Shown: positions 1 through 11,999, counted from the stretch's first letter. The stretch is DNA of 12,017 bases from Bdellovibrionia bacterium (GCA_049424145.1 JBMSSC010000087.1:1-12017), one strand, 5' to 3'. Notes: generated by a model not told the origin, from the sequence alone. Made by a program: numbers and translations.

Positions 1-138
1 AGCCGCCGCCGTGCCTCCAAAGACAATCAGAATTCCGTGGGGGTCTAAAAACATCGTAATGTCTTTGGCCGTGGTTGAAAGCGCGTAATACATCACGGAA
101 ATCCCGCCTAAGATGCCTGCAAGAGAGGATAGGTTCAT
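1..138 (-). CDS. motA: MotA/PomA-family stator A subunit, N-terminal 46 aa (continues beyond window edge)
   Basis: Manual translation from ATG at 138: MNLSSLAGILGGISVMYYALSTTAKDITMFLDPHGILIVFGGTAAA. This is TM1 followed by the F-x-D-x-x-[GS]-x-L-I-V-x-G-G-T signature of MotA/PomA TM2. The start overlaps the upstream stop (ATGA, 135-138). Confidence 0.88.
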   Translation of the reverse strand, partial: MNLSSLAGILGGISVMYYALSTTAKDITMFLDPHGILIVFGGTAAA

Positions 139-647
139 GATTTTCCAGTCTCCTTCCTTAAGATACTCTTCCAGAGCTGAAATTGACTGATGACATAGTT
201 GTCATCGAGGTCTCTGAGGCGGGTGGCGAGAGTTTGGATTGCGTTTTGATAGAATTCAAGCTTCATGGTGGGATCCGACTCCAAGAGTTCCATGAACTTT
301 TTCTTGGAGACATAAAATAGAGTGCACGGGGTGATGGCTCGGACAGTGGCTGTTCTGGGGTTTTCATCCAAAAGAGAGAGCTCGCCAAAGAAGCTTCCCC
401 CTTTGAGTTGAGCCAGATCGTAGTGATCTCCGGTGAGTTTATTGGTCTTAAAGATCCCGGCCGTTCCCTCTAAGAGCAGGTAGAGTCCCCAGCTAAGCTC
501 CCCTTCAATGATGATGTTCGTATGAGATTCAACTCTTAGGTGCTGGCCCAAGGAGATCAAGCGTTCAAGATTATTTTGGTTTAACGATTGAAGCAGTTTG
601 ATCTTCTTCAGTAAGGAGAACTCCGAGATCTCAGCAGGGGCATTCAT
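135..647 (-). CDS. Stand-alone cyclic nucleotide-binding (CNB) domain protein, 170 aa
   Basis: IIIEGE..GLYLLLEG and an intact phosphate-binding cassette FFGELSLLDENPRTATVRA, followed by a C-helix. There is no room for a Crp/Fnr HTH. Confidence 0.92.
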   Translation of the reverse strand: MNAPAEISEFSLLKKIKLLQSLNQNNLERLISLGQHLRVESHTNIIIEGELSWGLYLLLEGTAGIFKTNKLTGDHYDLAQLKGGSFFGELSLLDENPRTATVRAITPCTLFYVSKKKFMELLESDPTMKLEFYQNAIQTLATRLRDLDDNYVISQFQLWKSILRKETGKS

Positions 648-2896
648 CCGGCGCTCCTTTCTGTGACCACGGTTGCATCCGGTGGATTATCGGAGAACAT
701 CCGCTCGTTGGTTTCAATGAGGTTAATCAGTCCTTCATTGGCCATGATCTTCATCCGGTTTAAGACTTTGCGCTCCACGTTTTGATAGGTCTCTCGACTA
801 AAGACTGGGGCAATCGCAATTTCCTCTTCAAGTTCAGCGACAAGATCCTTCGGGGCTTTTGAGTAAATTGCATGACGCACCTCTTGAGGTGCTCCTTTTA
901 AGAACGGGATGAGCTCCTCGTGTTTTAGGCTTAAGACCACCTCGAGTAACTGTCCATCGCGGAGGTAGCGGAGCGTATCGGTGCTGACGAGCTTACTTTT
1001 GACCGTACGAGCACTGTCGGGATTGCTGAGCTCAAGGCTTTTTAAAACCGACTTCTGAATCGCATGTCCAGTCCGCTCCAGAAGTCCCACGAGCACCTCA
1101 GATCCAGGTAAAGCCTCCGTGTTGAGTCGGGGATTTTCTTTTTTCTTTCTCTTTAAGGCAGCTGCAACGTTGAAGATGAAGTCCTTGGGAAGATAATCGA
1201 TTCGAGAGAGCTCCGTGAGGACGGACATCCGCTCTTCGGCCTCCATTTGACTATAGATTGCAGCGCGCTTCTGAGGATCACACTGCGTGAGCACAATGGA
1301 TTTCACTGTGATGGATTCGGCCCGGATGAGCTCAAGGATTTGAGTTCCATCCATCTCACTTAAGAAGTCAAAGAAGTTGGAGGATCGATTGCCGAGGACC
1401 ACTAGTTTTCCAGCCGTGGTTCGGCTGTGGAGTTTTTTTAGGAGATTAAATTTTTCCTCATCCTTTAAAGTGATGGGATTTTTGGCGTAGTAATCCATTA
1501 ATTCCATGAGATCGCTTTGTAAGGTGGGGTCTCTAAGCATCTCAACGATGATTCCGTCGCCAAAGAGGTGAATGTACTCGGCAGTGACCTCAACCCCTTC
1601 CTCAGTGAGCACTTTACTAAACACTTGTTTTGCCACTCGAGGGCTCTGAGCAAAAATTGCGGTGAGCTCTTCGTGGAGTCGCTCAATCTCATAGCGCTGG
1701 GAGATGGGGTTGACGTTCTCAGAGAGAGAGCCCCCCCCGTCCTGAGGGGCGGAGCGAGCGATCGTAGGGGCATTGGCTGAGGCATTCTCTGAGGGGCTTA
1801 AGGGGTAAATGCGCGAGTAAGGAGAGCTGCTTGGGTTGGATTTTTTGAGTAAAGAGACGGATATAAAAATCAAAAGAGCAAGAACGGAGAGGGCAAACAG
1901 GAGAGCTGGGATTCTGAGTTTTTGCATTTCCTGGATGACGGCGTCTCCGTTTTCAACTCGCTCAATCTTTTCAATTCGTTCGGTTTTCTCTAGTCGAGAG
2001 TTATTGGACGAGCTTGTGCTACTGGATTCATTTCGGCTGTCGGTCTTATACTCACTTTTCCTCTCTGGGTCATTGGCCTCGGAGGCAAGTCCCCGAGAGC
2101 CACTAAAGCGAGCCACGGGAAACCTTAAGTTCTTAGCCGTCAGTCGGACGTTTCGATAGGCGTTTGTTTTAAGCCTCAGCATCTCAAGGAGATTGGATTT
2201 CTCCTCGGGGCTTAGGCTCTCATCCATCAGGATGGTGGCTGAGATTTCTTTGATTCGAACCGTGGTCCCCCCTTCTTGAATGAACTCGCCTAGGGCTCCG
2301 TACTGGGCCTCTTCGCCATTGACCACTTCCGTCTGCAAGTTGAAATCCCCAAGCAGGCAGGCTGAGTTACAGAACTCACGAAGCAGGGACTCTACTTTTC
2401 CTTGAAACTCTTTGGAGATTTTCTCTCGGATCTCGGTGATTTTGGTCTCCGAGCCTTGGGGCATTGGAAAGTGTGCCGTTTGAGCATCAATCTTCACCGG
2501 GTAATCCAGTGTGTCTAAGAATTGTTGAATGAGCTCAATCAACTTCGTTCGAGAAACAGGTCCCACCTTGTCATCAATGAGAATTTTCACGACGGAGGAC
2601 TCAGGGGTGAGCTCCGATGAGTTTCGGATGTCCTCTTCAAAACCGGGGGAGAAGAGTTGGGAGGAGCCCGGGCTCACCACGGTGCTCACGCTAACGAGGC
2701 GGCAGTACTCATGGCAGTATCGATCGAGCAGGGGCTCTAGGAGGTGGCGAATTTGGTTTTCTGAGGATTTTTTTACTACTTCAAAAGACGAAAGAGCAAA
2801 ACCCAGGGCGGGAGCAATCCAGAACGAGGCGATTGACCCCACTAAAATCAGCAGAGGAACCCACTTGAGTTGAAGGCCTCTCTGCGCTTGCTTCAT
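644..2896 (-). CDS. Membrane-anchored FliF-like/FliG fusion protein, 750 aa
   Basis: N-terminal signal/TM (aa ~12-35). Two ~100-aa RBM3-like repeats (aa ~45-144, ~160-260; IKEISATILMDESLSPEEKSNLLEML resembles FliF IKRLSVAVLVD..LS.EEL..I..LV). TM at aa 329-350. FliF-C-like helices (LHEELTAIFAQSPRVAKQVFSKVLTEE). FliG-N (GVEVTAEYIHLFGDGIIVEML), FliG-M (FFDFLSEMDGTQILELIRAE...) and FliG-C (FLKGAPQEVRHAIY...EGLINL). The FliG part is clear; the FliF-like part is less certain. Confidence 0.8.
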   Translation of the reverse strand: MKQAQRGLQLKWVPLLILVGSIASFWIAPALGFALSSFEVVKKSSENQIRHLLEPLLDRYCHEYCRLVSVSTVVSPGSSQLFSPGFEEDIRNSSELTPESSVVKILIDDKVGPVSRTKLIELIQQFLDTLDYPVKIDAQTAHFPMPQGSETKITEIREKISKEFQGKVESLLREFCNSACLLGDFNLQTEVVNGEEAQYGALGEFIQEGGTTVRIKEISATILMDESLSPEEKSNLLEMLRLKTNAYRNVRLTAKNLRFPVARFSGSRGLASEANDPERKSEYKTDSRNESSSTSSSNNSRLEKTERIEKIERVENGDAVIQEMQKLRIPALLFALSVLALLIFISVSLLKKSNPSSSPYSRIYPLSPSENASANAPTIARSAPQDGGGSLSENVNPISQRYEIERLHEELTAIFAQSPRVAKQVFSKVLTEEGVEVTAEYIHLFGDGIIVEMLRDPTLQSDLMELMDYYAKNPITLKDEEKFNLLKKLHSRTTAGKLVVLGNRSSNFFDFLSEMDGTQILELIRAESITVKSIVLTQCDPQKRAAIYSQMEAEERMSVLTELSRIDYLPKDFIFNVAAALKRKKKENPRLNTEALPGSEVLVGLLERTGHAIQKSVLKSLELSNPDSARTVKSKLVSTDTLRYLRDGQLLEVVLSLKHEELIPFLKGAPQEVRHAIYSKAPKDLVAELEEEIAIAPVFSRETYQNVERKVLNRMKIMANEGLINLIETNERMFSDNPPDATVVTERSAG

Positions 2897-3657
2897 AGAG
2901 ATCCTCCGGTGTAGAGACTTCTTTTCCGATCGAGGAATTTTTTCAGATTCAGGTTTCTAGGATCAAATCGAAGGGCTTGGCTCCAGGCCTGAAGCGCCAG
3001 GTCCTTGCGTCCGAGCTTATCCAGCAGGGTTCCCCTCATTTCATAGAGTTTGGAATCCGTTTGATACTGCCGAATGAGTTCGTCCGTCTCAATGAGGGCG
3101 GCTTCAAATCGGGTCATGCGATAGAGTTGTTTGATGTGATCCACGGCACCTAGGTAGCTTGAGGAGTGAGTGGAGGCGCCCTCTTCACTTGGAACGAGAT
3201 CTAAGGTGCGCTCAATGTCCCGAATTCGAGATTCATCCTCCGCAGCGCCTTGGGGAAATCGATTGACGATGTCACGATCAGAGAACGTCGGGGCGCGGTT
3301 TTTATAAGATTCATCGACCATTTCTGGGGAATCCATCATGGAACCAGACAGAGAGGTAAGCCCACGTCCTGAGTTTTTAAATGCAGGGGAGACGGGCAGC
3401 ACAAATTCACTTAAGTTTCTTCGGTCCCCAGGGATCTCCAGCTCCACGGAGCGATCCCCTTTTTTGGTTCTCAGGATCATGTTCTGATGATTCTCCGAGG
3501 TGAGTTCGGGGCGGTATTGGGAAAACGGATTGGAGATGGGTTGCCGCAGGGGCTTTGGATTCACCCCAAAAATCGTATTCAGCCCAGCGCAGCCTGAGGC
3601 TCCGAGGCTTAAACCGATCAGTAGAGCGGCAGATGATGGGGTCCAAATCTGTTTCAA
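2893..3657 (-). CDS. TPR-containing lipoprotein, 254 aa
   Basis: TTG start after GAGG. Lipobox LGASG^C (Cys23). C-terminal TPR helices (KLYEMRGTLLDKLGRKDLALQAWSQALRFDPRN). ATGA overlap with the next gene. Confidence 0.85.
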   Translation of the reverse strand: MKQIWTPSSAALLIGLSLGASGCAGLNTIFGVNPKPLRQPISNPFSQYRPELTSENHQNMILRTKKGDRSVELEIPGDRRNLSEFVLPVSPAFKNSGRGLTSLSGSMMDSPEMVDESYKNRAPTFSDRDIVNRFPQGAAEDESRIRDIERTLDLVPSEEGASTHSSSYLGAVDHIKQLYRMTRFEAALIETDELIRQYQTDSKLYEMRGTLLDKLGRKDLALQAWSQALRFDPRNLNLKKFLDRKRSLYTGGSL

Positions 3658-3701
3658 CTTCGTTTCCTCATGGCTTCATTAAGTTTCAACTTTTCGTTCC
3701 T
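3651..3701. repeat. Imperfect direct repeat duplicating the RBS plus TTG start of the TPR lipoprotein gene
   Basis: gtttcaacttcgtttcct (3651-3668) and gtttcaacttttcgttcct (3683-3701). On the minus strand these read AGGAAACGAAG-TTG-AAAC and AGGAACGAAAAG-TTG-AAAC. Confidence 0.6.
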
Positions 3702-4826
3702 TTAAAACAAAACACTCACTCCTAAACCGTATTCAAGACCTGTAATCGTGGCCTGTCCTCCTAGGAAGGAGGTGGAGGCCGGGCGGTAGCCTAAATTGAT
3801 TCCAGTGGCAAAGTGTTTGCCTAATCTCCACTCATAGCCTGCGCGCACGAGCCCGCCTAGGTAGCCCGAGGCATAGGTTCCTCCAATGCCTAAAAGGAGG
3901 CTTCCTCGGAGTAAATTATAGTTCTCCTCCTCTCCAATGAAGTTCCACGCATGTAAGAAGACGAGGGTGAGGTTAAATCCAAAGCTGGCATAGAGATCGG
4001 TTGAAACCGCTGCAGAGCGATTGACGATGGTGGAGGCATTGGTCATATAATTTGCCTCAAAGCCCACTTCTTTTTTTCGGTTATCGTAGCGTTCCATCAT
4101 GCGATAGCCCAAAGCCAGATTCCCAGTGGGGCTTGGGTGATTGGGTTGAACGAGGTAGTAAATGATCAGACGAGATTGCACCAAGGGAGCATATTCGGTG
4201 GCTCGATGGGCTGAATCAATCTGGGTATAATCCACGCCTCGTTTAAAGGCAGCTGATCGGGAGTTCTCCGAGTTGTAGCTTCGGGACCAGAGGATGCTGT
4301 CGGTTTCTGGGTCGGTGATGGTCATGGACATCACGATCCCGGTGGGCTCAAAACTGAAGGCCACGTCCATGAATCGGGCAATCCCCGTTGCTTTAGCAAT
4401 CCGGGTGAGCTCCATGGGATCCGTCTCTGGGGATTTGATGACGATTTGGTCCCCATCGAGGCTGGTTTTTCTCGCACGACAGGGGAGGCATTGAATCACG
4501 CGAGTCTTGGTGTTTTTTAAAATCGTTTCGGTGATGAGAAGCTCTAAGTGGGCTTTAAAGGAGGGGGGAACGTTCTCGCTTAAGGCGAGGTTTCGGATGG
4601 AAAGGTCCTTAAGTCCGTTGACGTTTCCGTTTTTAAGATCGAACTCAAAGTCGCCCAGAACCTCATCTAAGACTTGGTAAAAGTCTCGCGTGCCTCCACT
4701 GGGGGAGGCTGCGGCCTGGAGTGGAGCAATCGGCGTGCTCGGCGTTTCAGCATGCGCCTGAAGACCACTGAGTAGAACTCCGCTCAGGATGCTCAAGGTG
4801 CTCAAGATGCGGATGAATGCGCTCAT
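3702..4826 (-). CDS. Secreted protein: FlgO/CsgG/LpoB-like N-terminal domain plus putative C-terminal outer-membrane beta-barrel (ORF open to 4898; ATG 4826 preferred)
   Basis: Sec signal MSAFIRILSTLSILSGVLLSGLQAHA^E. Alpha/beta domain ending IAKATGIARFMD...MTITDPETDSILWSRSY (D-x-ET-x-x-I-L-W-S pattern of CsgG/FlgO/LpoB-type folds), with a CLPC motif. The C-terminal ~170 aa are amphipathic Gly/aromatic strands ending GLEYGLGVSVLF (terminal Phe, BAM signal-like). Confidence 0.7.
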   Translation of the reverse strand: MSAFIRILSTLSILSGVLLSGLQAHAETPSTPIAPLQAAASPSGGTRDFYQVLDEVLGDFEFDLKNGNVNGLKDLSIRNLALSENVPPSFKAHLELLITETILKNTKTRVIQCLPCRARKTSLDGDQIVIKSPETDPMELTRIAKATGIARFMDVAFSFEPTGIVMSMTITDPETDSILWSRSYNSENSRSAAFKRGVDYTQIDSAHRATEYAPLVQSRLIIYYLVQPNHPSPTGNLALGYRMMERYDNRKKEVGFEANYMTNASTIVNRSAAVSTDLYASFGFNLTLVFLHAWNFIGEEENYNLLRGSLLLGIGGTYASGYLGGLVRAGYEWRLGKHFATGINLGYRPASTSFLGGQATITGLEYGLGVSVLF

Positions 4827-4983
4827 TGGATAGACTCGGTTTCGCACAGTTTTTTCTTCATGCTCCTTTCTCTGAGACTGAATCGGATTTTTATTCAAAG
4901 GAGTTTAGGTTTATCCCTAAGATGCATGAAAATCGTTTGATCTCTCTGAATAAGAGGAATGAGACCCGGTGGGTAGAAAACTC

Positions 4984-5011
4984 TAAGTGATTGGATAGGG
5001 GTTTCCGATAC
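4984..5011 (+). promoter_or_regulatory. Possible sigma28 (FliA)-type promoter for the lipoprotein gene
   Basis: TAAG-N16-TCCGATAC versus consensus TAAA-N15-GCCGATAA, 20 nt upstream of ATG 5032. Confidence 0.4.
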
Positions 5012-5031
5012 GTCTCTGAGTGGAGAGGGCT

Positions 5032-6096
5032 ATGGAGCAGTCGGTCAGAAAATGGAACATGAAGAAGGGAATGCAACTCACTGCAATCAGTGGGTTTGTT
5101 TTTGCTTTCGCATGTTCTACCGTAGAAATCATCCCCGCCCCAATGCCCAACCCTCCGGTGTTCACGAGCGTTCCGCATCCGGCAGGATCAGATTTGGGGG
5201 ATGTGGCTGCAATTTTTACCGATGAAATGGCTCCTCGAGATCCTGATTTTTTTAATCAGTGTGACGCAAAGTATCGAAAGCTCACAGAGCTCACCAAGAG
5301 TCGAGACGAGATTCATGAAGGTTTAAGAGAATTAGTTAAGCAGGATCCGGTTCATTATCATTGGTGTTTTTATGGCAAGATTTTGGATTTGGAAAAGTCA
5401 TTAAAGAATGAATCATTTGTAGAACTCAGGCAGAAGCGAATCCTCGATACGTTCGAGTTCTTGGCGCCTTTGGGTAAGGTTTTCTCCTCTGAGTACCACG
5501 ACTCTCGCTACTTAAGAGCAGCCGTGGTGCGATACCAGAAGTTGAGTGAGTGGGCCTTTTACCGAAGGCTTGAGCTCACTCCGGTTGGGACTTCTCAATT
5601 GGTGAAGTCGAGCAATCCTTTTGGACTCTGGCGAGATACATTGGATACGATTTCAGTTTTGGAGAAGTATCGGCTTTTAGCTCAACCCTCGGATCGACTC
5701 AAAGAGGATGCTGCAGCTTCGCTCATGGGTTCAGAGGCGGTGGAGCCTAAGCCCGTGCCTCAAGCTTCTCCTGTTCCCTCAGTTGCCAGTGGGGCTCAAA
5801 AGCAAACCCCAGAAGCGCCCATTGCTGCGCCTGTTGTCCCTGTGGCTCAGTCCCCAGCCCCCGTGATTCAAGCAGCAACGCCTCCGGTGAAGCCAGAAGT
5901 CTCAAAGGTCAAACCTCCTGCTTCAGCCTCAAAAGAAGCCAGTGCTGGGGCTCAGAAGAAGCCCGAACCCAAGAAAGTGGAGCCTGCCCCAAAGGCAGAT
6001 GAAGCCGTCTCCGACGAATCAGCCTCATCCGAAGAAAGTGGGGATCTGCAATTGCCCATTGAAGGAGAAGAGGCCAGTATGGATTCCTCAGGTTAG
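5032..6096 (+). CDS. Hypothetical lipoprotein with helical core and Pro/Ala/Lys-rich, acidic disordered C-terminal tail (start 5032 or 5059)
   Basis: GGAGAGG before ATG 5032. Signal MKKGMQLTAISGFVFAFA^C with a lipobox-like Cys. Core has two further Cys (NQCDA, YHWCFY). The last ~130 aa are low complexity. Confidence 0.78.
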   Translation: MEQSVRKWNMKKGMQLTAISGFVFAFACSTVEIIPAPMPNPPVFTSVPHPAGSDLGDVAAIFTDEMAPRDPDFFNQCDAKYRKLTELTKSRDEIHEGLRELVKQDPVHYHWCFYGKILDLEKSLKNESFVELRQKRILDTFEFLAPLGKVFSSEYHDSRYLRAAVVRYQKLSEWAFYRRLELTPVGTSQLVKSSNPFGLWRDTLDTISVLEKYRLLAQPSDRLKEDAAASLMGSEAVEPKPVPQASPVPSVASGAQKQTPEAPIAAPVVPVAQSPAPVIQAATPPVKPEVSKVKPPASASKEASAGAQKKPEPKKVEPAPKADEAVSDESASSEESGDLQLPIEGEEASMDSSG

Positions 6097-6915: not shown

Positions 6916-7302
6916 CTAAAGCTTCTGATCAAGGATTTTTCCGCAAAACTTCAGTTCCGAGGATTTTCCACCGCGCAGTTTAATGAACTCTTCGCCTGAG
7001 AATTGCCTTAGGGTCTTGCCGTTTGAGTCCTTTAAAATCACGCGTAACCCCAGGGAATGGGTTTCTAGATGAACGCTCAGTCCATGGGCCTGGGCTTGGC
7101 TATCGGACTGAAAGTCTTCGAGGGCTTGCTCCAGTTGTTGCGGTGAAAAGGACTCGTCTGAGGGGGACTCTTCAAACGGGGGTTTTCGATCCTTTTTACC
7201 GTGTTCTTGAGAAAACGATCGATCCGAAGAGGGGGAATCCTCTTTTCGGTCCCTCACCCCGCGGGGATATCCAAATGCTGTGGTTAGAGGTTGAATTTTC
7301 AT
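6916..7302 (-). CDS. flaG: FlaG-family flagellar protein, 128 aa
   Basis: Disordered N-terminus, then QLEQALEDF...GLSVHLE...LRVILKDSNGKTLRQFSGEEFIKL...GKILDQKL, matching the FlaG pattern (V.VVD..TGEVIRQIP.EE.L...G.L.D...). Lies directly downstream of a flagellin. Confidence 0.78.
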   Translation of the reverse strand: MKIQPLTTAFGYPRGVRDRKEDSPSSDRSFSQEHGKKDRKPPFEESPSDESFSPQQLEQALEDFQSDSQAQAHGLSVHLETHSLGLRVILKDSNGKTLRQFSGEEFIKLRGGKSSELKFCGKILDQKL

Positions 7303-7486: not shown

Positions 7487-8314
7487 TTAGAGCAGCTTGA
7501 GGGCCTGGGCAGGAGCTTGGTTTGCCTGCGCAAGAACCGCGATTCCGGCTTGCTGCAGGATGTTCGACTTGACGAGCTCATAGGTTTCTTGGGCCAGATC
7601 CGTATCCATGATGTTGGAGCGCGCTTGGGTGTACTGTTCTGTGATGTTTTGAATGGTTCGGTTCTCCGATAGGAGTCGGTTTTGGATGGCACCTAACGTG
7701 GCTCGCGTGCTTAAGACCTTACCAAAGGCCTCATCAATGACTCCCAGGGAGTCCTCTGCCCCACTTAAGGAGTTGAGGTTGATTCCGTCCACCCCGAGAG
7801 TTCTGGACCTGACATCGGCCAAGCGAGTATCAAACTGAAGACGATCGTTTTCTGAGTTTTCCGTGCCAACTTGGAACGTCAGGTTGTCGACCGAGCCGTT
7901 GAGCAGATGAATGCCGTTAAATGTGGTGGACTCGGCAATGTGATTGAATCCTTGGATAATGCTTTCGGCTTCCAGTTGGAGGGAGGCGCGTTCGTTTTCT
8001 CCCACCGTATCGGAGGCGGCTTGAATTCCTAACTCCCTGAGTCGGATCAACCCATTACTGAGTTCAGTCATGGCTCCCTCGGCTACTTGAGCAAAGGAGG
8101 CAGCGTCCATGGTGTTTCTCTCAGCTTGTTTGAGGGAGCGGATTTGTTTTCTCAACCGTTCGGCAATGGAGAGGCCTGCGGGGTCTTCTGCTGCACTGGT
8201 GATGCGCTCCCCTGAGGCAATGCGTTGAAAGCTCGTCTTTTGTTCCGACATGGATCGCGATAGCGAGTGGACGATGGAAAGTGAACTGAGATTGTTATTA
8301 ATGACTAAGCCCAT
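7487..8314 (-). CDS. fliC: Flagellin (short, D0/D1 only, divergent), 275 aa
   Basis: True start is ATG 8314 (MGLVINNN) after RBS AAGGAG. Motifs IASGERITSAAEDPAGLSIA, QVAEGAM, FNGIHLL, RATLGAIQNRL, ILQQAGIAVLAQAN. Confidence 0.95.
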   Translation of the reverse strand: MGLVINNNLSSLSIVHSLSRSMSEQKTSFQRIASGERITSAAEDPAGLSIAERLRKQIRSLKQAERNTMDAASFAQVAEGAMTELSNGLIRLRELGIQAASDTVGENERASLQLEAESIIQGFNHIAESTTFNGIHLLNGSVDNLTFQVGTENSENDRLQFDTRLADVRSRTLGVDGINLNSLSGAEDSLGVIDEAFGKVLSTRATLGAIQNRLLSENRTIQNITEQYTQARSNIMDTDLAQETYELVKSNILQQAGIAVLAQANQAPAQALKLL

Positions 8315-8373
8315 AAAAAAACTCCTTCTCCAGCAACCGAGAATTGGTTTTTTACGTCTGTCTCTGTTCAAGA

Positions 8374-8413
8374 CATGGCCCGTGCCCCTTCGTTTGGAGG
8401 GGGCACTTCCATG
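8374..8413 (-). promoter_or_regulatory. GC-rich stem-loop in the ~180-nt 5' leader of the second flagellin
   Basis: gtgcccc (8382-8388) / ggggcac (8400-8406), extended by catgg (8374-8378) / ccatg (8409-8413). The mRNA carries CAUGGAAG at the stem base. Confidence 0.55.
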
Positions 8414-8498
8414 GATTCCGCTCGTGTAACAGCAAGATACAGCAAGCAGACGCAAGTCAACTGAGCCTCAGGGGGATTCCCTTGCGCTCTTATGACTC

Positions 8499-8654: not shown

Positions 8655-9488
8655 TTAGCTAATGAGCTTGAGAGCTAACATGTTGCTTTGATTGGCTTGA
8701 CTGAGGACTGACGTTCCTGCTTGGGCCAGGATGTTATTTTTTGCTAAATCAGCGGCCTCTTGAGCCATATCCGCATCTCGGATGCGGCTATTTGCACTGG
8801 AGAGGTTTTCGTCATAGACCCTCAAGGTGTTGACGGCCGATTGGAGTCGGGTTTGTAAGGACCCCAGTTCTGCACGGTTTTCAATGAGGGTATTGACGGA
8901 TCCATCAATCGTCGAGAGGGCTTCCCGAGCTCCCTCTTTGGTTGCAACGGAGAGGCCCGTTAAACCCAGTTTGCCCAGCGATACATCGGTCTTGTTCGTA
9001 TCAATGGCAAATCGATCTTCATCCGGATTATTGTGAGTTCCGATTTGGACATCAATGTTATTGCCATTTCCAGACAATAACTTCATGCCGTTGTACTCGG
9101 TGGAGGTCGAAATTCTCACAATTTCTTGTTTCAATTGTGTGATTTCCTTATCAATGAAGCCTCTTTCCGTATCTCCGATGGTGTCGGAAGCCGACTGAAT
9201 GGCGAGTTCCCGGAATCGAACTAAGATGTTGCTGATCTCGTTCATTCCCCCTTCGGCCGTTTGGATCATAGAAACGCCGTCGCTTGCGTTTTTGATGTCC
9301 TGGCGGATCGAGCGAATCTGGCCTTTCATTTTCTCCGAGATCGCAAGGCCTGCCGCATCGTCTGCGGACTTATTGATTCGAGAGCCCGAAGCAATGTGTT
9401 CTAAAGTCTCTTTTTGAGCGGCAGTGCTTGCGTTTAAGAAGCGCTGCGCAACGAGTGATTGTACGTTCGTACTAATGACGATACCCAT
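8655..9488 (-). CDS. fliC: Flagellin (short, D0/D1 only), 277 aa
   Basis: Canonical motifs IASGSRINKSADDAAGLAISE, IQTAEGGM, RAELGSLQTRL, SRIRDADMAQE, ILAQAGTSVLSQAN. RBS GGAGGAG. Confidence 0.97.
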   Translation of the reverse strand: MGIVISTNVQSLVAQRFLNASTAAQKETLEHIASGSRINKSADDAAGLAISEKMKGQIRSIRQDIKNASDGVSMIQTAEGGMNEISNILVRFRELAIQSASDTIGDTERGFIDKEITQLKQEIVRISTSTEYNGMKLLSGNGNNIDVQIGTHNNPDEDRFAIDTNKTDVSLGKLGLTGLSVATKEGAREALSTIDGSVNTLIENRAELGSLQTRLQSAVNTLRVYDENLSSANSRIRDADMAQEAADLAKNNILAQAGTSVLSQANQSNMLALKLIS

Positions 9489-10733: not shown

Positions 10734-11999
10734 ATGGAACCCCAATCTCTCGGAGTCAAAGAGTCCCTGTGTGCTTTAGCCATTCTCCACTGCCTTCCTC
10801 TGGTTTTATTTGCTTTATGGGAGGATCACTTCAGGGGTTCACTCCAAGAACTCAGGCAAGCGCAGGAGAAAGTCGAAGTCGACCGGGAACGTGATCAGAT
10901 CAAGTTTGTCAGCTTCTTAGTCCTCCTCACTCAGCTTCTTTTGTTCTTGGGCTCCTTTGATTTACAAGCCGCCCATCCCTCGGGGGCTTTGGGGATTTTC
11001 GTCCTCGCTCTTTTGGGCCAGTTTTTCATTCAATCTCAAGCCGAGGCTCACTTGCAGTCCCCAGAGATTTCTGCAAAGGAGGGGGGGATGCTTTTATGGA
11101 AGGCCTTCCTTTTTTGGCTCTTGGGAGTGGGGGTGAACCTGGCGTGCTTGGTGGGCTCAACGGGTCTGACTTTGGTTTTACTTCAGCTGCTTCAACCGAA
11201 GCTGGCCCTAGGGCTTCTGGCGTTGATCGTCTCAGCAATTTCTGGGGTTCTCTTTGGGATTCATCTCAACTTTTTATTCTCTCCTTTTTACTTAAAGAAC
11301 CTATTCCCCATCCAACCGTTGGAGGATTTGAGATTAAGGCGCTTGCTTTCTGAGTGCTTCACTCGATTTCAGCTTCCAGTGCCTGATCTTCTCGTGGTTC
11401 ATCTGAAGACTCGAACCTTGAGCCAAAATATCTTAGCAGGATCCCCCTACCGCAAGCACAGGCTGAAGGCTGCCTACTTGATCTCCCATCAGGTCTTAAG
11501 CCTACTTTCTGAAAAGGAGCTTTTGGCTCTGGTTCTCAACCAGGTGAGTTATTTCGTTCTCAATCAAGCGGGGAAAAGAAATCGACTCCTGGGGGGGCTG
11601 GTCTTATTGACGGCTGGGCTTGGGACGGCGGCTATTTTTCTGGGAAACCGGTGGTTTCAAAAAGAGGGATTCACGGAGCTTTTTGGGGTGATGGTTTCCT
11701 TGAGTTTACTCACCCTCTCCTATCGCTTTTTGTCTCGTCAGATTCAAAAGCAGGAGCTTGAGCGAGATTCCTATACGATTTTAACGATGGGGGTTTCGTA
11801 TTCAGATTTCTCTACGGCACTAAGAAAGCTCGATTCCCTCCAGGCGGAGTTTCAACTTCTCACTCAATCAGGTGAGGGGAAACATCCGTTGGCTCAGGGG
11901 CTGCCTGAGACTGAAAAAAGACTGGAGGCTTTAAAGAAAGCCATTCCCTTGGAACCCTCTTCGTCCTCGCAAGAAAGCTCGTTTTCTCAAGCCGCTTAG
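10734..11999 (+). CDS. Polytopic membrane protein, M48 (HtpX/Ste24) peptidase homolog lacking zinc ligands
   Basis: About 7 hydrophobic segments. M48 scaffold PLEDLRLRRLL..F...P, LSEKELLALVLNQVSY (expected HELGH), QELERD (E.EAD), ALRKL, LPETEKRL (expected HP....RI). Confidence 0.75.
   Translation: MEPQSLGVKESLCALAILHCLPLVLFALWEDHFRGSLQELRQAQEKVEVDRERDQIKFVSFLVLLTQLLLFLGSFDLQAAHPSGALGIFVLALLGQFFIQSQAEAHLQSPEISAKEGGMLLWKAFLFWLLGVGVNLACLVGSTGLTLVLLQLLQPKLALGLLALIVSAISGVLFGIHLNFLFSPFYLKNLFPIQPLEDLRLRRLLSECFTRFQLPVPDLLVVHLKTRTLSQNILAGSPYRKHRLKAAYLISHQVLSLLSEKELLALVLNQVSYFVLNQAGKRNRLLGGLVLLTAGLGTAAIFLGNRWFQKEGFTELFGVMVSLSLLTLSYRFLSRQIQKQELERDSYTILTMGVSYSDFSTALRKLDSLQAEFQLLTQSGEGKHPLAQGLPETEKRLEALKKAIPLEPSSSSQESSFSQAA

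Follow-up and report, generated by a model that had tools for sequence, protein, structure and literature searches.

A single-chain FliF-FliG-like protein encoded with its own MotAB-type stator in Bdellovibrionia, probably part of a second motor-like envelope machine

FliF, FliG, and the stator proteins MotA and MotB are textbook partners, known only from flagella. Contig JBMSSC010000087.1 of a Bdellovibrionia bacterium (assembly GCA_049424145.1), whose whole length of 12,017 nucleotides was analyzed and is called the window here, carries on its minus strand one ATG-started open reading frame (ORF; 644..2896) for a 750-aa protein in which a FliF-like part runs straight into FliG-like N, M, and C domains. 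The same genome has separate canonical fliF and fliG genes in a flagellar operon, so the fusion is a diverged paralogue of FliF and FliG and not the flagellar rotor of the cell. Its own MotA and MotB genes lie beside it, apart from the ordinary flagellar genes, and it is therefore probably part of a second, previously undescribed motor-like envelope machine. We lean, by a little better than an even chance, towards a separate rotor-stator envelope module with a ring-forming FliF/FliG-like rotor, a flagellar-type stator of its own, control by a cyclic nucleotide monophosphate (cNMP) receptor, and outer membrane (OM) partners. The original prediction had recognized the natural single chain, which the open frame of 750 aa bears out. 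It had also proposed an evolved fusion that fixes a 1:1 stoichiometry of MS ring and C ring in the flagellum, and this role is dismissed because the protein is a diverged paralogue in a separate operon with its own MotAB.

Domain architecture and reading frame of the fusion

The AlphaFold2 (AF2) model of the fusion has a mean predicted local distance difference test (pLDDT) score of 74.6, with values of about 90 in the folded parts. About 230 well-conserved residues follow the N-terminus, and about 340 helical residues follow a Ser/Pro-rich linker. The protein begins with a hydrophobic stretch (aa 12-34, 2795..2863; all features of the fusion are on the minus strand) that has a predicted helix at 13-25 and is a putative signal peptide or first membrane anchor; in an alignment of relatives (A1), the N-termini are signal-peptide-like, with small residues at the end. 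Two periplasmic alpha-beta-beta-alpha-beta domains resembling FliF RBM3 come next, domain 1 at aa 36-144 (2465..2791) and domain 2 at aa 148-260 (2117..2455). Most of domain 1 is modeled with pLDDT around 90, except for a loop of low confidence (aa 81-93). A Ser/Asn/Thr-rich periplasmic linker of variable length (aa 261-298, 2003..2116; pLDDT <50, gappy low-complexity columns in A1) leads to a conserved pre-membrane helix (aa 299-328, 1913..2002) with the motif ERIEKIERVENGDA, where the columns from E303 to A319 are nearly invariant and the model places a helix at 299-315 and the start of another at 318-351. The transmembrane (TM) helix, with the hydrophobic stretch IPALLFALSVLALLIFISVSLL, occupies aa 329-350 (1847..1912) within predicted helix 318-351. 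On the cytoplasmic side are the Ser/Pro-rich linker (aa 351-394, 1715..1846; pLDDT <50), a FliF-C-like segment of two predicted helices (395-417 and 419-433; segment aa 395-432, 1601..1714), and FliG-like domains N (aa 433-505, 1382..1600), M (aa 506-590, 1127..1381), and C (aa 597-735, 692..1108), the last with the torque helix at about aa 680-693.

The layout from the TM segment onwards had been predicted from the sequence, and the positions agree closely with those obtained here. The TM segment (1847-1912) corresponds to aa 329-350, and the Ser/Pro linker was placed behind it, as found. The FliF-C-like segment (1598-1690) covers aa 403-433, FliG-N (1427-1597) aa 434-490, FliG-M (approximately 1148-1375) aa 508-583, and FliG-C (approximately 719-1108) aa 597-726. 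The junction had been proposed no more than one residue away from aa 433, the first residue aligned with FliG.

FliG-like domains are detected in the fusion by family models, profile comparison, and structural alignment. Of the Pfam models for FliG (PF14842, PF14841, PF01706), FliG_M matches aa 518-588 (34.1 bits, cut-off 25; E 3.2e-8) and FliG_C matches aa 620-726 (51 bits, cut-off 23.3; E 1.9e-13), and FliG_N has no match in the fusion. A profile of aa 392-750 from a deep family alignment (A4, 32 sequences, down to 23% identity) was compared by hhalign with a profile of 25 canonical FliGs (the genome's own, that of E. coli, and 23 from the phylum). The match had a probability (Prob) of 98.8 and an E-value of 1.3e-16 over 292 columns, and it placed fusion aa 433-726 collinearly on FliG 10-327 (of 337), with a P of 0.57 for the column-reversed control. 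The FliG-N-like region lies within this alignment, and on its own it gave a P of 0.05-0.07. In structural alignment with VIA-align, Salmonella FliG 5-331 fell on aa 433-738 (Z 13.9), with an rmsd of 17 because the domain orientations differ. The FliG-C-like domain was matched by 1lkv (Z 14.6) and, at aa 638-725, by the FliG-C of the MotAB-FliG complex 8ucs_H (Z 12.0, rmsd 2.0, 88 aligned). From the collinear hhalign and VIA-align spans, all three FliG domains appear to be present in the fusion, and the FliG part starts at aa 433. With canonical FliGs included in the family alignment, the 'LTG..K' at their N-terminus aligned with 'LTEEGVE' of the family.

Several motifs of canonical FliG, with letters taken from E. 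coli FliG and the genome's own FliG, are replaced in the family. EHPQ in FliG-M has become E-S-x-T (E527 and T530 invariant), LGGV, which holds the GG motif before FliG-C, has become LPGS (596-599 invariant), and MFxF has become LVSxD/ET. EHPQR in FliG-M and the GG motif are the FliM-binding motifs of FliG. In the torque helix, positions K264, R281, D288, D289, and R297 were verified on the E. coli sequence, and K264, D288, and D289 match K667, E691, and E692 of the fusion; the function of these five charged residues is stated in passages of a survey of MotAB evolution (PMC12505986).

For the FliF-like half, the best VIA-align match of each periplasmic domain is FliF RBM3 (Z 10.2-11.1, rmsd 2.2-3.1, 92-99 residues). 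Domain 1 aligns with FliF 7cg7_A (Z 11.0, rmsd 3.1, 97 aligned), the runner-up being the C-terminal domain of MamB (Z 10.0), and domain 2 aligns with MS ring 8z5v_A (Z 11.1, rmsd 2.2, 96 aligned); 6sd1_A (Z 10.8) is also among the best RBM3 matches. Foldseek ranks FliF MS-ring chains right behind FliG (7bk0_B, E 4.7e-5; 8zds_B, 1.3e-4; 6scn_A, 3e-4; overall range 4.7e-5 to 5e-4). The long beta-collar of RBM3 is absent, since the alignments bypass it (92-99 residues over a chain range of 229-452), and domain 2 has only a short insert (aa 194-210). The first helix of each domain aligned by hhalign with the start of RBM3 (FliF 230-271) at a P of about 0.05 each (reversed control 0.52). Each periplasmic domain also has one CxxxC motif in the same place (C61/C65 and C176/C180), and these four cysteines are invariant down to 23% identity.

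FliF C-terminal helices bind FliG-N. In the fusion, helices 395-417 and 419-433 occupy just the interval from the linker to the first residue aligned with FliG, and P419, F426, and G434 are nearly invariant in A4. By hhalign, aa 400-433 fall on the C-terminal helices of FliF (513-546) with a P of 0.0077-0.011 using A4 (reversed controls 0.036 and 0.46) and 0.03 using the narrower A1. That the FliF-C/FliG-N junction has been retained is suggested by where the segment lies, by its predicted helices, and by a profile score that is marginal and does not amount to a significant sequence match.

The reading frame is conserved among relatives. A word-index protein search returned 217 relatives at E <= 0.001, and the best 120 of these are 712-839 aa long with 50-68% identity and 89-99% query coverage. 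A genome scan with one genome per species yielded 62 related loci, all in metagenome-assembled genomes (MAGs) labeled mostly Bdellovibrionota, Oligoflexia, or Bacteriovoracaceae. A single open frame from aa <=60 to >=730 is present in 53 of the 62, and the other nine comprise six cut by contig ends, two with runs of 10 Ns, and one with a frame change near aa 670-685. None of the 62 loci is split where the FliF-like part meets the FliG-like part. Contigs from three public sequencing runs, one possibly the source sample and two from two other studies, differ from window positions 1-4000 by substitutions and one in-frame 3-base deletion. Those of the two other studies cover most of the fusion gene with no frame-breaking change.

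The continuity of the frame, which was to be confirmed with reads and homologs, thus holds in related loci and in contigs of public runs, and misassembly or frameshift was rejected on the relatives, the 62 loci, and the contigs of other studies. An artefact (frameshift, misassembly, or chimeric contig) could be argued from the 193-contig assembly and from the end of the window contig inside motA; given 217 relatives, no split at the junction, and independent contigs with intact frames, we regard it as extremely improbable. The in-frame deletion, at position 1737 in the Ser/Pro-rich cytoplasmic linker, is present in the two runs from other studies, and this variant indicates that the linker tolerates length change. 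Public records label these proteins 'FliG C-terminal domain-containing protein', 'flagellar motor switch protein FliG', or 'hypothetical protein', much as had been anticipated for automatic annotation.

Operon context and canonical flagellar genes

The fusion takes third place in a closely packed operon with the order OM barrel protein, TPR protein, fusion, cNMP-binding protein, MotA, MotB, and SH3 protein. The TPR/fusion and fusion/cNMP junctions are 4-base ATGA overlaps. The window contig (C87) ends inside motA and the rest of this gene is on contig C91, so the two contigs are adjacent in the genome. In a tblastn search with MotA from related locus L018, C87 174..1 matched aa 1-58 (the 5' part of motA, 1..174, minus strand) and C91 11192..10554 matched aa 60-272. 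The end of C91 (9590-11192, minus strand) holds the rest of motA, then motB and the SH3-domain gene, followed by a convergent ORF of the 507-aa type. Counted over the related loci with enough flank, the TPR protein precedes the fusion in 50/50, the OM protein is present in 47/47, and the cNMP protein follows the fusion in 58/59; MotA is found in 56/57, MotB in 55/56, and the SH3 protein in 43/49.

The operon stator is, by its sequence, flagellar-type (MotAB/PomAB). Pfam scores are 73.5 bits for MotA_ExbB, 52.5 bits for MotB_plug, and 50.5 bits for OmpA, and the best NCBIfam models are MotP/PomA/MotA (1e-42 to 1e-37) and MotD/MotS/MotB; the NCBIfam equivalog cut-offs are not reached (144.6 vs 394). 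The channel aspartate is kept in the MotB of this genome's own operon, where the Asp of YAD lies opposite E. coli D32. Apart from the stator, flagellar genes are missing from the operon, including any for an export gate, rod, hook, or filament.

Canonical flagellar genes are found elsewhere in the same genome. On contig C50, a fliF of 563 aa (PF01514, 206 bits) adjoins a fliG of 337 aa (TIGR00207, 314.5 bits) in the order flgB-flgC-fliE-fliF-fliG-fliH-fliI; the cluster was named by gene order, family models having been applied to fliF and fliG only. This canonical FliF is the sole PF01514 match in the genome. The fusion itself scores 52.3 bits with TIGR00207, the NCBIfam fliG equivalog, against a cut-off of 226.7, and with the canonical pair kept in the genome, the idea that the fusion serves as FliF and FliG proper does not stand. 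A second motAB pair, 40% identical, is on contig C18. Two small FliG-type ORFs were also seen, with coordinates given within the fetched loci L003 and L004: a 157-aa ORF on C29 (1462-1935, minus strand) has FliG_C only (E 1.2e-10) and lies beside an RDD-family membrane protein, and a 260-aa ORF on C18 (1255-2037, minus strand) has FliG_M only (E 2.1e-7), with the other motAB pair about 20 kb away.

The fusion has a narrow distribution within the phylum. A match at E <= 1e-20 was obtained in 70 of 401 sampled genomes, concentrated in one order, with 49/57 genomes of family f1, 12/17 of family f3, and isolated genomes from further families of that order. Families f21 (0/53) and f22 (0/100) have no fusion match, and PF01514 FliF is present in 53/53 and 99/100 of their genomes, respectively. 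One PF01514 FliF was detected in 362 of the 401 genomes. The match in genome G071 (family f19) is weak and FliG-like, covering aa 466-741 only (E 3e-21).

The OM protein (398 aa; 3702..4898, minus strand) combines an LpoB-C/TolB-N-like domain (aa 74-212) with an 8-stranded barrel (aa 236-398) in an AF2 model with pLDDT 80.6. The barrel resembles NspA 1p4t (Z 16.7) and OprF-N (Z 15.7), the periplasmic domain resembles LpoB-C 4q6l (Z 10.3), and Foldseek matches include TolB, LpoB, and PelC. Leads to LpoB/CsgG from a protein atlas were followed, and the fold search upheld the LpoB-C/TolB-N likeness alone. The TPR protein (254 aa; 2893..3657, minus strand) has a signal-peptide-like N-terminus with Cys23 and weak Pfam TPR matches at 203-235. 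The cNMP-binding protein (170 aa; 135..647, minus strand; Pfam cNMP_binding, E 1.6e-17) keeps in its alignment (A2) the FGE...RSAT phosphate-binding cassette. Prediction of a complex between fusion aa 395-750 (A1) and the cNMP protein (A2) yielded two ipSAE values, both 0.00, where the mark is 0.32, and this counts neither way. Upstream of the operon, a divergent 358-aa Pro/Ala/Lys-rich protein (5020..6096, plus strand) with no Pfam or NCBIfam match is present in 41/43 loci with enough flank. A promoter and terminator scan of 1-5400 was uninformative, with two promoter-like and five terminator-like elements, all on the plus strand and at or below shuffle expectation.

Proposed mechanism and alternative explanations

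Fold and gene context suggest how such a machine could work. Contacts between RBM-type domains would assemble the fusion into a ring in the membrane, with its FliG-like domains displayed as a ring on the cytoplasmic side. PomAB/MotPS-type stator units from the operon would be held on peptidoglycan by the OmpA-like domain of MotB, and ion flow through them would push on the FliG-C torque helix, so that the ring is turned or at least force is applied to it. Control would probably come from the co-encoded cNMP-binding protein instead of a FliM/FliN switch, which is considered absent because the FliM-binding motifs of FliG are replaced. In the periplasm, the TPR protein and the OM barrel protein would receive the output. 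The module is not regarded as a flagellum, because the operon is without export gate, rod, hook, and filament genes. We tentatively propose, with confidence somewhat under even, that the operon encodes an independent envelope machine, ion-driven and either rotary or force-transmitting, which is cNMP-gated, is coupled by the TPR protein to the OM barrel, and is a pared-down relative of the flagellar torque generator or a case of its reuse.

A number of observations weigh against a separate rotor-stator machine. Ring formation and rotation are deduced from fold and context, and the roles given to the cNMP protein and the periplasmic partners are likewise deduced. In the FliF-like half, Pfam YscJ_FliF (PF01514, the SctJ-homology region RBM1-RBM2) has no match in the fusion, hhalign P values are only 0.008-0.15, and those of A1 alone against FliF (0.03-0.17) are not significant; a search of PDB sequences (E <= 10) with a hidden Markov model of aa 392-510 gave 14 entries, none of them FliF or FliG. 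The C-terminal domains of MamB, MamM, and CzrB score about one unit under FliF (Z 8.7-10.0), so an RBM-type fold alone is not diagnostic. Nevertheless, a metal-binding CDF/MamM-type C-terminal domain was rejected as the poorer label for the periplasmic domains, because Foldseek puts FliF rings first and because the domains occur in tandem with a TM helix, FliF-C-like helices, and FliG. In the torque helix, R281 is opposite an acidic D/E684 (with K/R683 adjacent) and R297 is opposite S700 (with R701 adjacent), indicating that the stator interface is not simply conserved. Mapping of MotA R90 and E98 by MAFFT was unreliable in that loop, and no charge-pairing claim is made. Canonical FliF is also found in 68 of the 70 fusion-bearing genomes, the exceptions being G263 (95% complete, 490 contigs) and G071, and flagellin matches occur in the flanks of 18-19 of the 62 related loci. 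The window itself has two flagellin genes (Flagellin_N plus Flagellin_C; 7487..8455 and 8655..9488, minus strand) 4.6-6.6 kb upstream of the fusion. Finally, a sister clade of the fusion has no MotA, MotB, OM protein, or TPR protein in any of its 21 metagenome loci within the fetched flanks.

The near-constant co-occurrence with a real flagellum and the nearby flagellins are the reason why a flagellar role keeps some weight. The fusion might serve the ordinary motor as an accessory component or an alternative one, placed in or around the MS ring and C ring and recruiting a second stator in a dual-stator arrangement, with the TPR and OM proteins as scaffolds. The flagellar-type stator with its MotB plug and its best models among MotP/PomA/MotA would suit such a part, and TPR proteins reportedly serve as scaffolds of complex motors (PflA/PflB). 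We consider this unlikely, since the operon contributes no other flagellar gene and the genome has canonical fliF and fliG of its own and, on C18, another motAB pair. The fusion has lost the FliM-binding motifs and has no RBM1 or RBM2, the domains that house the export gate, and flagellated families f21 (0/53) and f22 (0/100) live without the fusion gene.

A non-rotating energized envelope system or sensor, in which a FliG-like platform docks stators and the cNMP receptor and no ring turns, is given a similarly low probability. Such a system would transmit force or a signal to the cell wall and the outer membrane, as Tol-Pal or TonB does. In its favor, a TPR protein is encoded together with an OM partner that carries a TolB-N/LpoB-C-like domain, a set that resembles TolB and CpoB of Tol-Pal. 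Of the five torque-helix charges, two are shifted, and the sister clade also speaks for this explanation, for it has the fusion and often the cNMP protein without an adjacent MotAB. Tandem RBM3-like domains, however, are ring-building modules in FliF, and the full FliG N/M/C set occurs together with a plug-bearing flagellar-type stator in 56/57 loci. Such joint retention is most simply explained by a rotor-stator interaction as in the flagellum.

If the second envelope machine turns, it would be a second type of machine built on the flagellar torque generator and a simpler one, with one rotor protein and an operon without FliM/FliN, export gate, or rod. The fusion is a conserved and selected single-chain version of the rotor with a dedicated stator and envelope partners, maintained in flagellated cells. 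Such a natural minimal rotor-stator pair would be suited to structural and single-molecule work and would bear on the origin of the motor core before, or apart from, the filament. Judging from the sequence, the fusion may covalently fix the co-folded FliF-C/FliG-N interface, which bears on the matching of MS-ring and C-ring stoichiometry. Through its link to a cNMP receptor, the module suggests that second messengers may be wired to a MotAB-type motor in a new way.

Known systems, sister clade, and further observations

The order of parts in the fusion, with periplasmic ring-building domains, TM, FliF-C-like helices, and FliG N/M/C, is that of flagellar FliF followed by FliG and of the FliF-FliG fusions, engineered or spontaneous, that have been reported for Salmonella and Vibrio (PDB 8z4d/8z4g; PMC10941966, PMC11481574). 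Like the flagellar rotor, it has the FliG and RBM3 folds and is encoded with flagellar-type MotAB. Unlike that rotor, it is a paralogue beside normal fliF and fliG and has two RBM3-like domains only, with no RBM1 or RBM2; it also differs from flagellar FliG by its replaced EHPQ, GG, and MFxF motifs and by a score far below the TIGR00207 cut-off. Whereas flagellar fliG lies between fliF and fliH, the operon partners of the fusion are an OM barrel protein, a TPR protein, and a cNMP receptor.

Natural fusions in other taxa had been suspected, and one has been described in Chlamydiaceae (Bergeron, 2016, PeerJ; PMC4768692). According to passages of that paper, the chlamydial protein is about 330 aa long with similarity to FliG-M only, Chlamydia is regarded as nonflagellated, and the author suggests a connection with the injectisome; a MotAB partner is not mentioned in those passages. 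Going by the paper's description, the two proteins share a short periplasmic part with two RBM-type domains, two hydrophobic segments, a cytoplasmic FliG-like part, and a location outside a complete flagellar operon, whereas all three FliG-like domains and an own stator distinguish the present protein.

Non-flagellar MotAB-family 5:2 motors (Tol-Pal, ExbBD-TonB, GldLM, AglRQS, and ZorAB) are likewise ion-driven stator-type complexes encoded with envelope-spanning partners and no filament, and the OM partner of the present system has a TolB-N/LpoB-like domain. To our knowledge, none of these motors has a FliG-like or FliF-like partner. Their A and B subunits belong to non-flagellar branches, while the present stator best fits MotP/PomA/MotA and keeps the MotB plug. 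The survey of MotAB evolution (PMC12505986) names these motors, and its relevant passages do not name a FliG-like partner. No description of the present family or operon was found in the open literature on FliF-FliG fusions, Bdellovibrio FliG, and non-flagellar MotAB, a search that left subscription journals largely uncovered.

An exhaustive representative search returned full-length relatives at 26-32% identity. The sister clade, 24-29% identical to the fusion in A4, shares its architecture and the four cysteines. Its gene follows an L,D-transpeptidase in 13 of the 21 loci (L100-L120; e.g., L113:3707-8870), has a DsbA-like thioredoxin directly upstream in 12, and lies beside a cNMP-binding gene in 7-8. 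Because this clade has no adjacent MotAB, the stator link is limited to the clade of the window and is not family-wide. Since the cNMP gene is often kept there and MotAB is in none of the fetched flanks, the cNMP receptor is the most persistent partner of the protein family. The DsbA-like neighbor would fit with disulfides in the CxxxC motifs.

Pfam scanning of 31 distant representatives gave no YscJ_FliF or FliG_N match in the 14 that align beyond the FliG part (P0139-P0206). The remaining 17 are membrane-anchored FliG-like proteins with several weak FliG_N matches, of which that of P0252 is above the cut-off. One representative, P0263 (629 aa, from an Elusimicrobiota MAG), has a YscJ_FliF_C match (PF08345; aa 118-173) plus FliG_M and FliG_C, and may be another natural FliF-FliG-type fusion outside the present family. 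Further membrane-anchored FliG-like proteins of 550-730 aa exist, and their N-terminal parts differ.

Some features of the window lie upstream of the operon. The TTG start of the first flagellin ORF is probably too far upstream, because Flagellin_N begins at aa 52. Between an LpxH-like gene and the flagellins, a 128-aa ORF (6916-7302, minus strand) has no Pfam or NCBIfam match and is present in 3/62 loci; its place beside flagellins is reminiscent of FlaG-type proteins. At the far end of the window, a conserved 421-aa multi-pass membrane-like protein without a family match (10734-11999, plus strand) is present in 13/62 loci.

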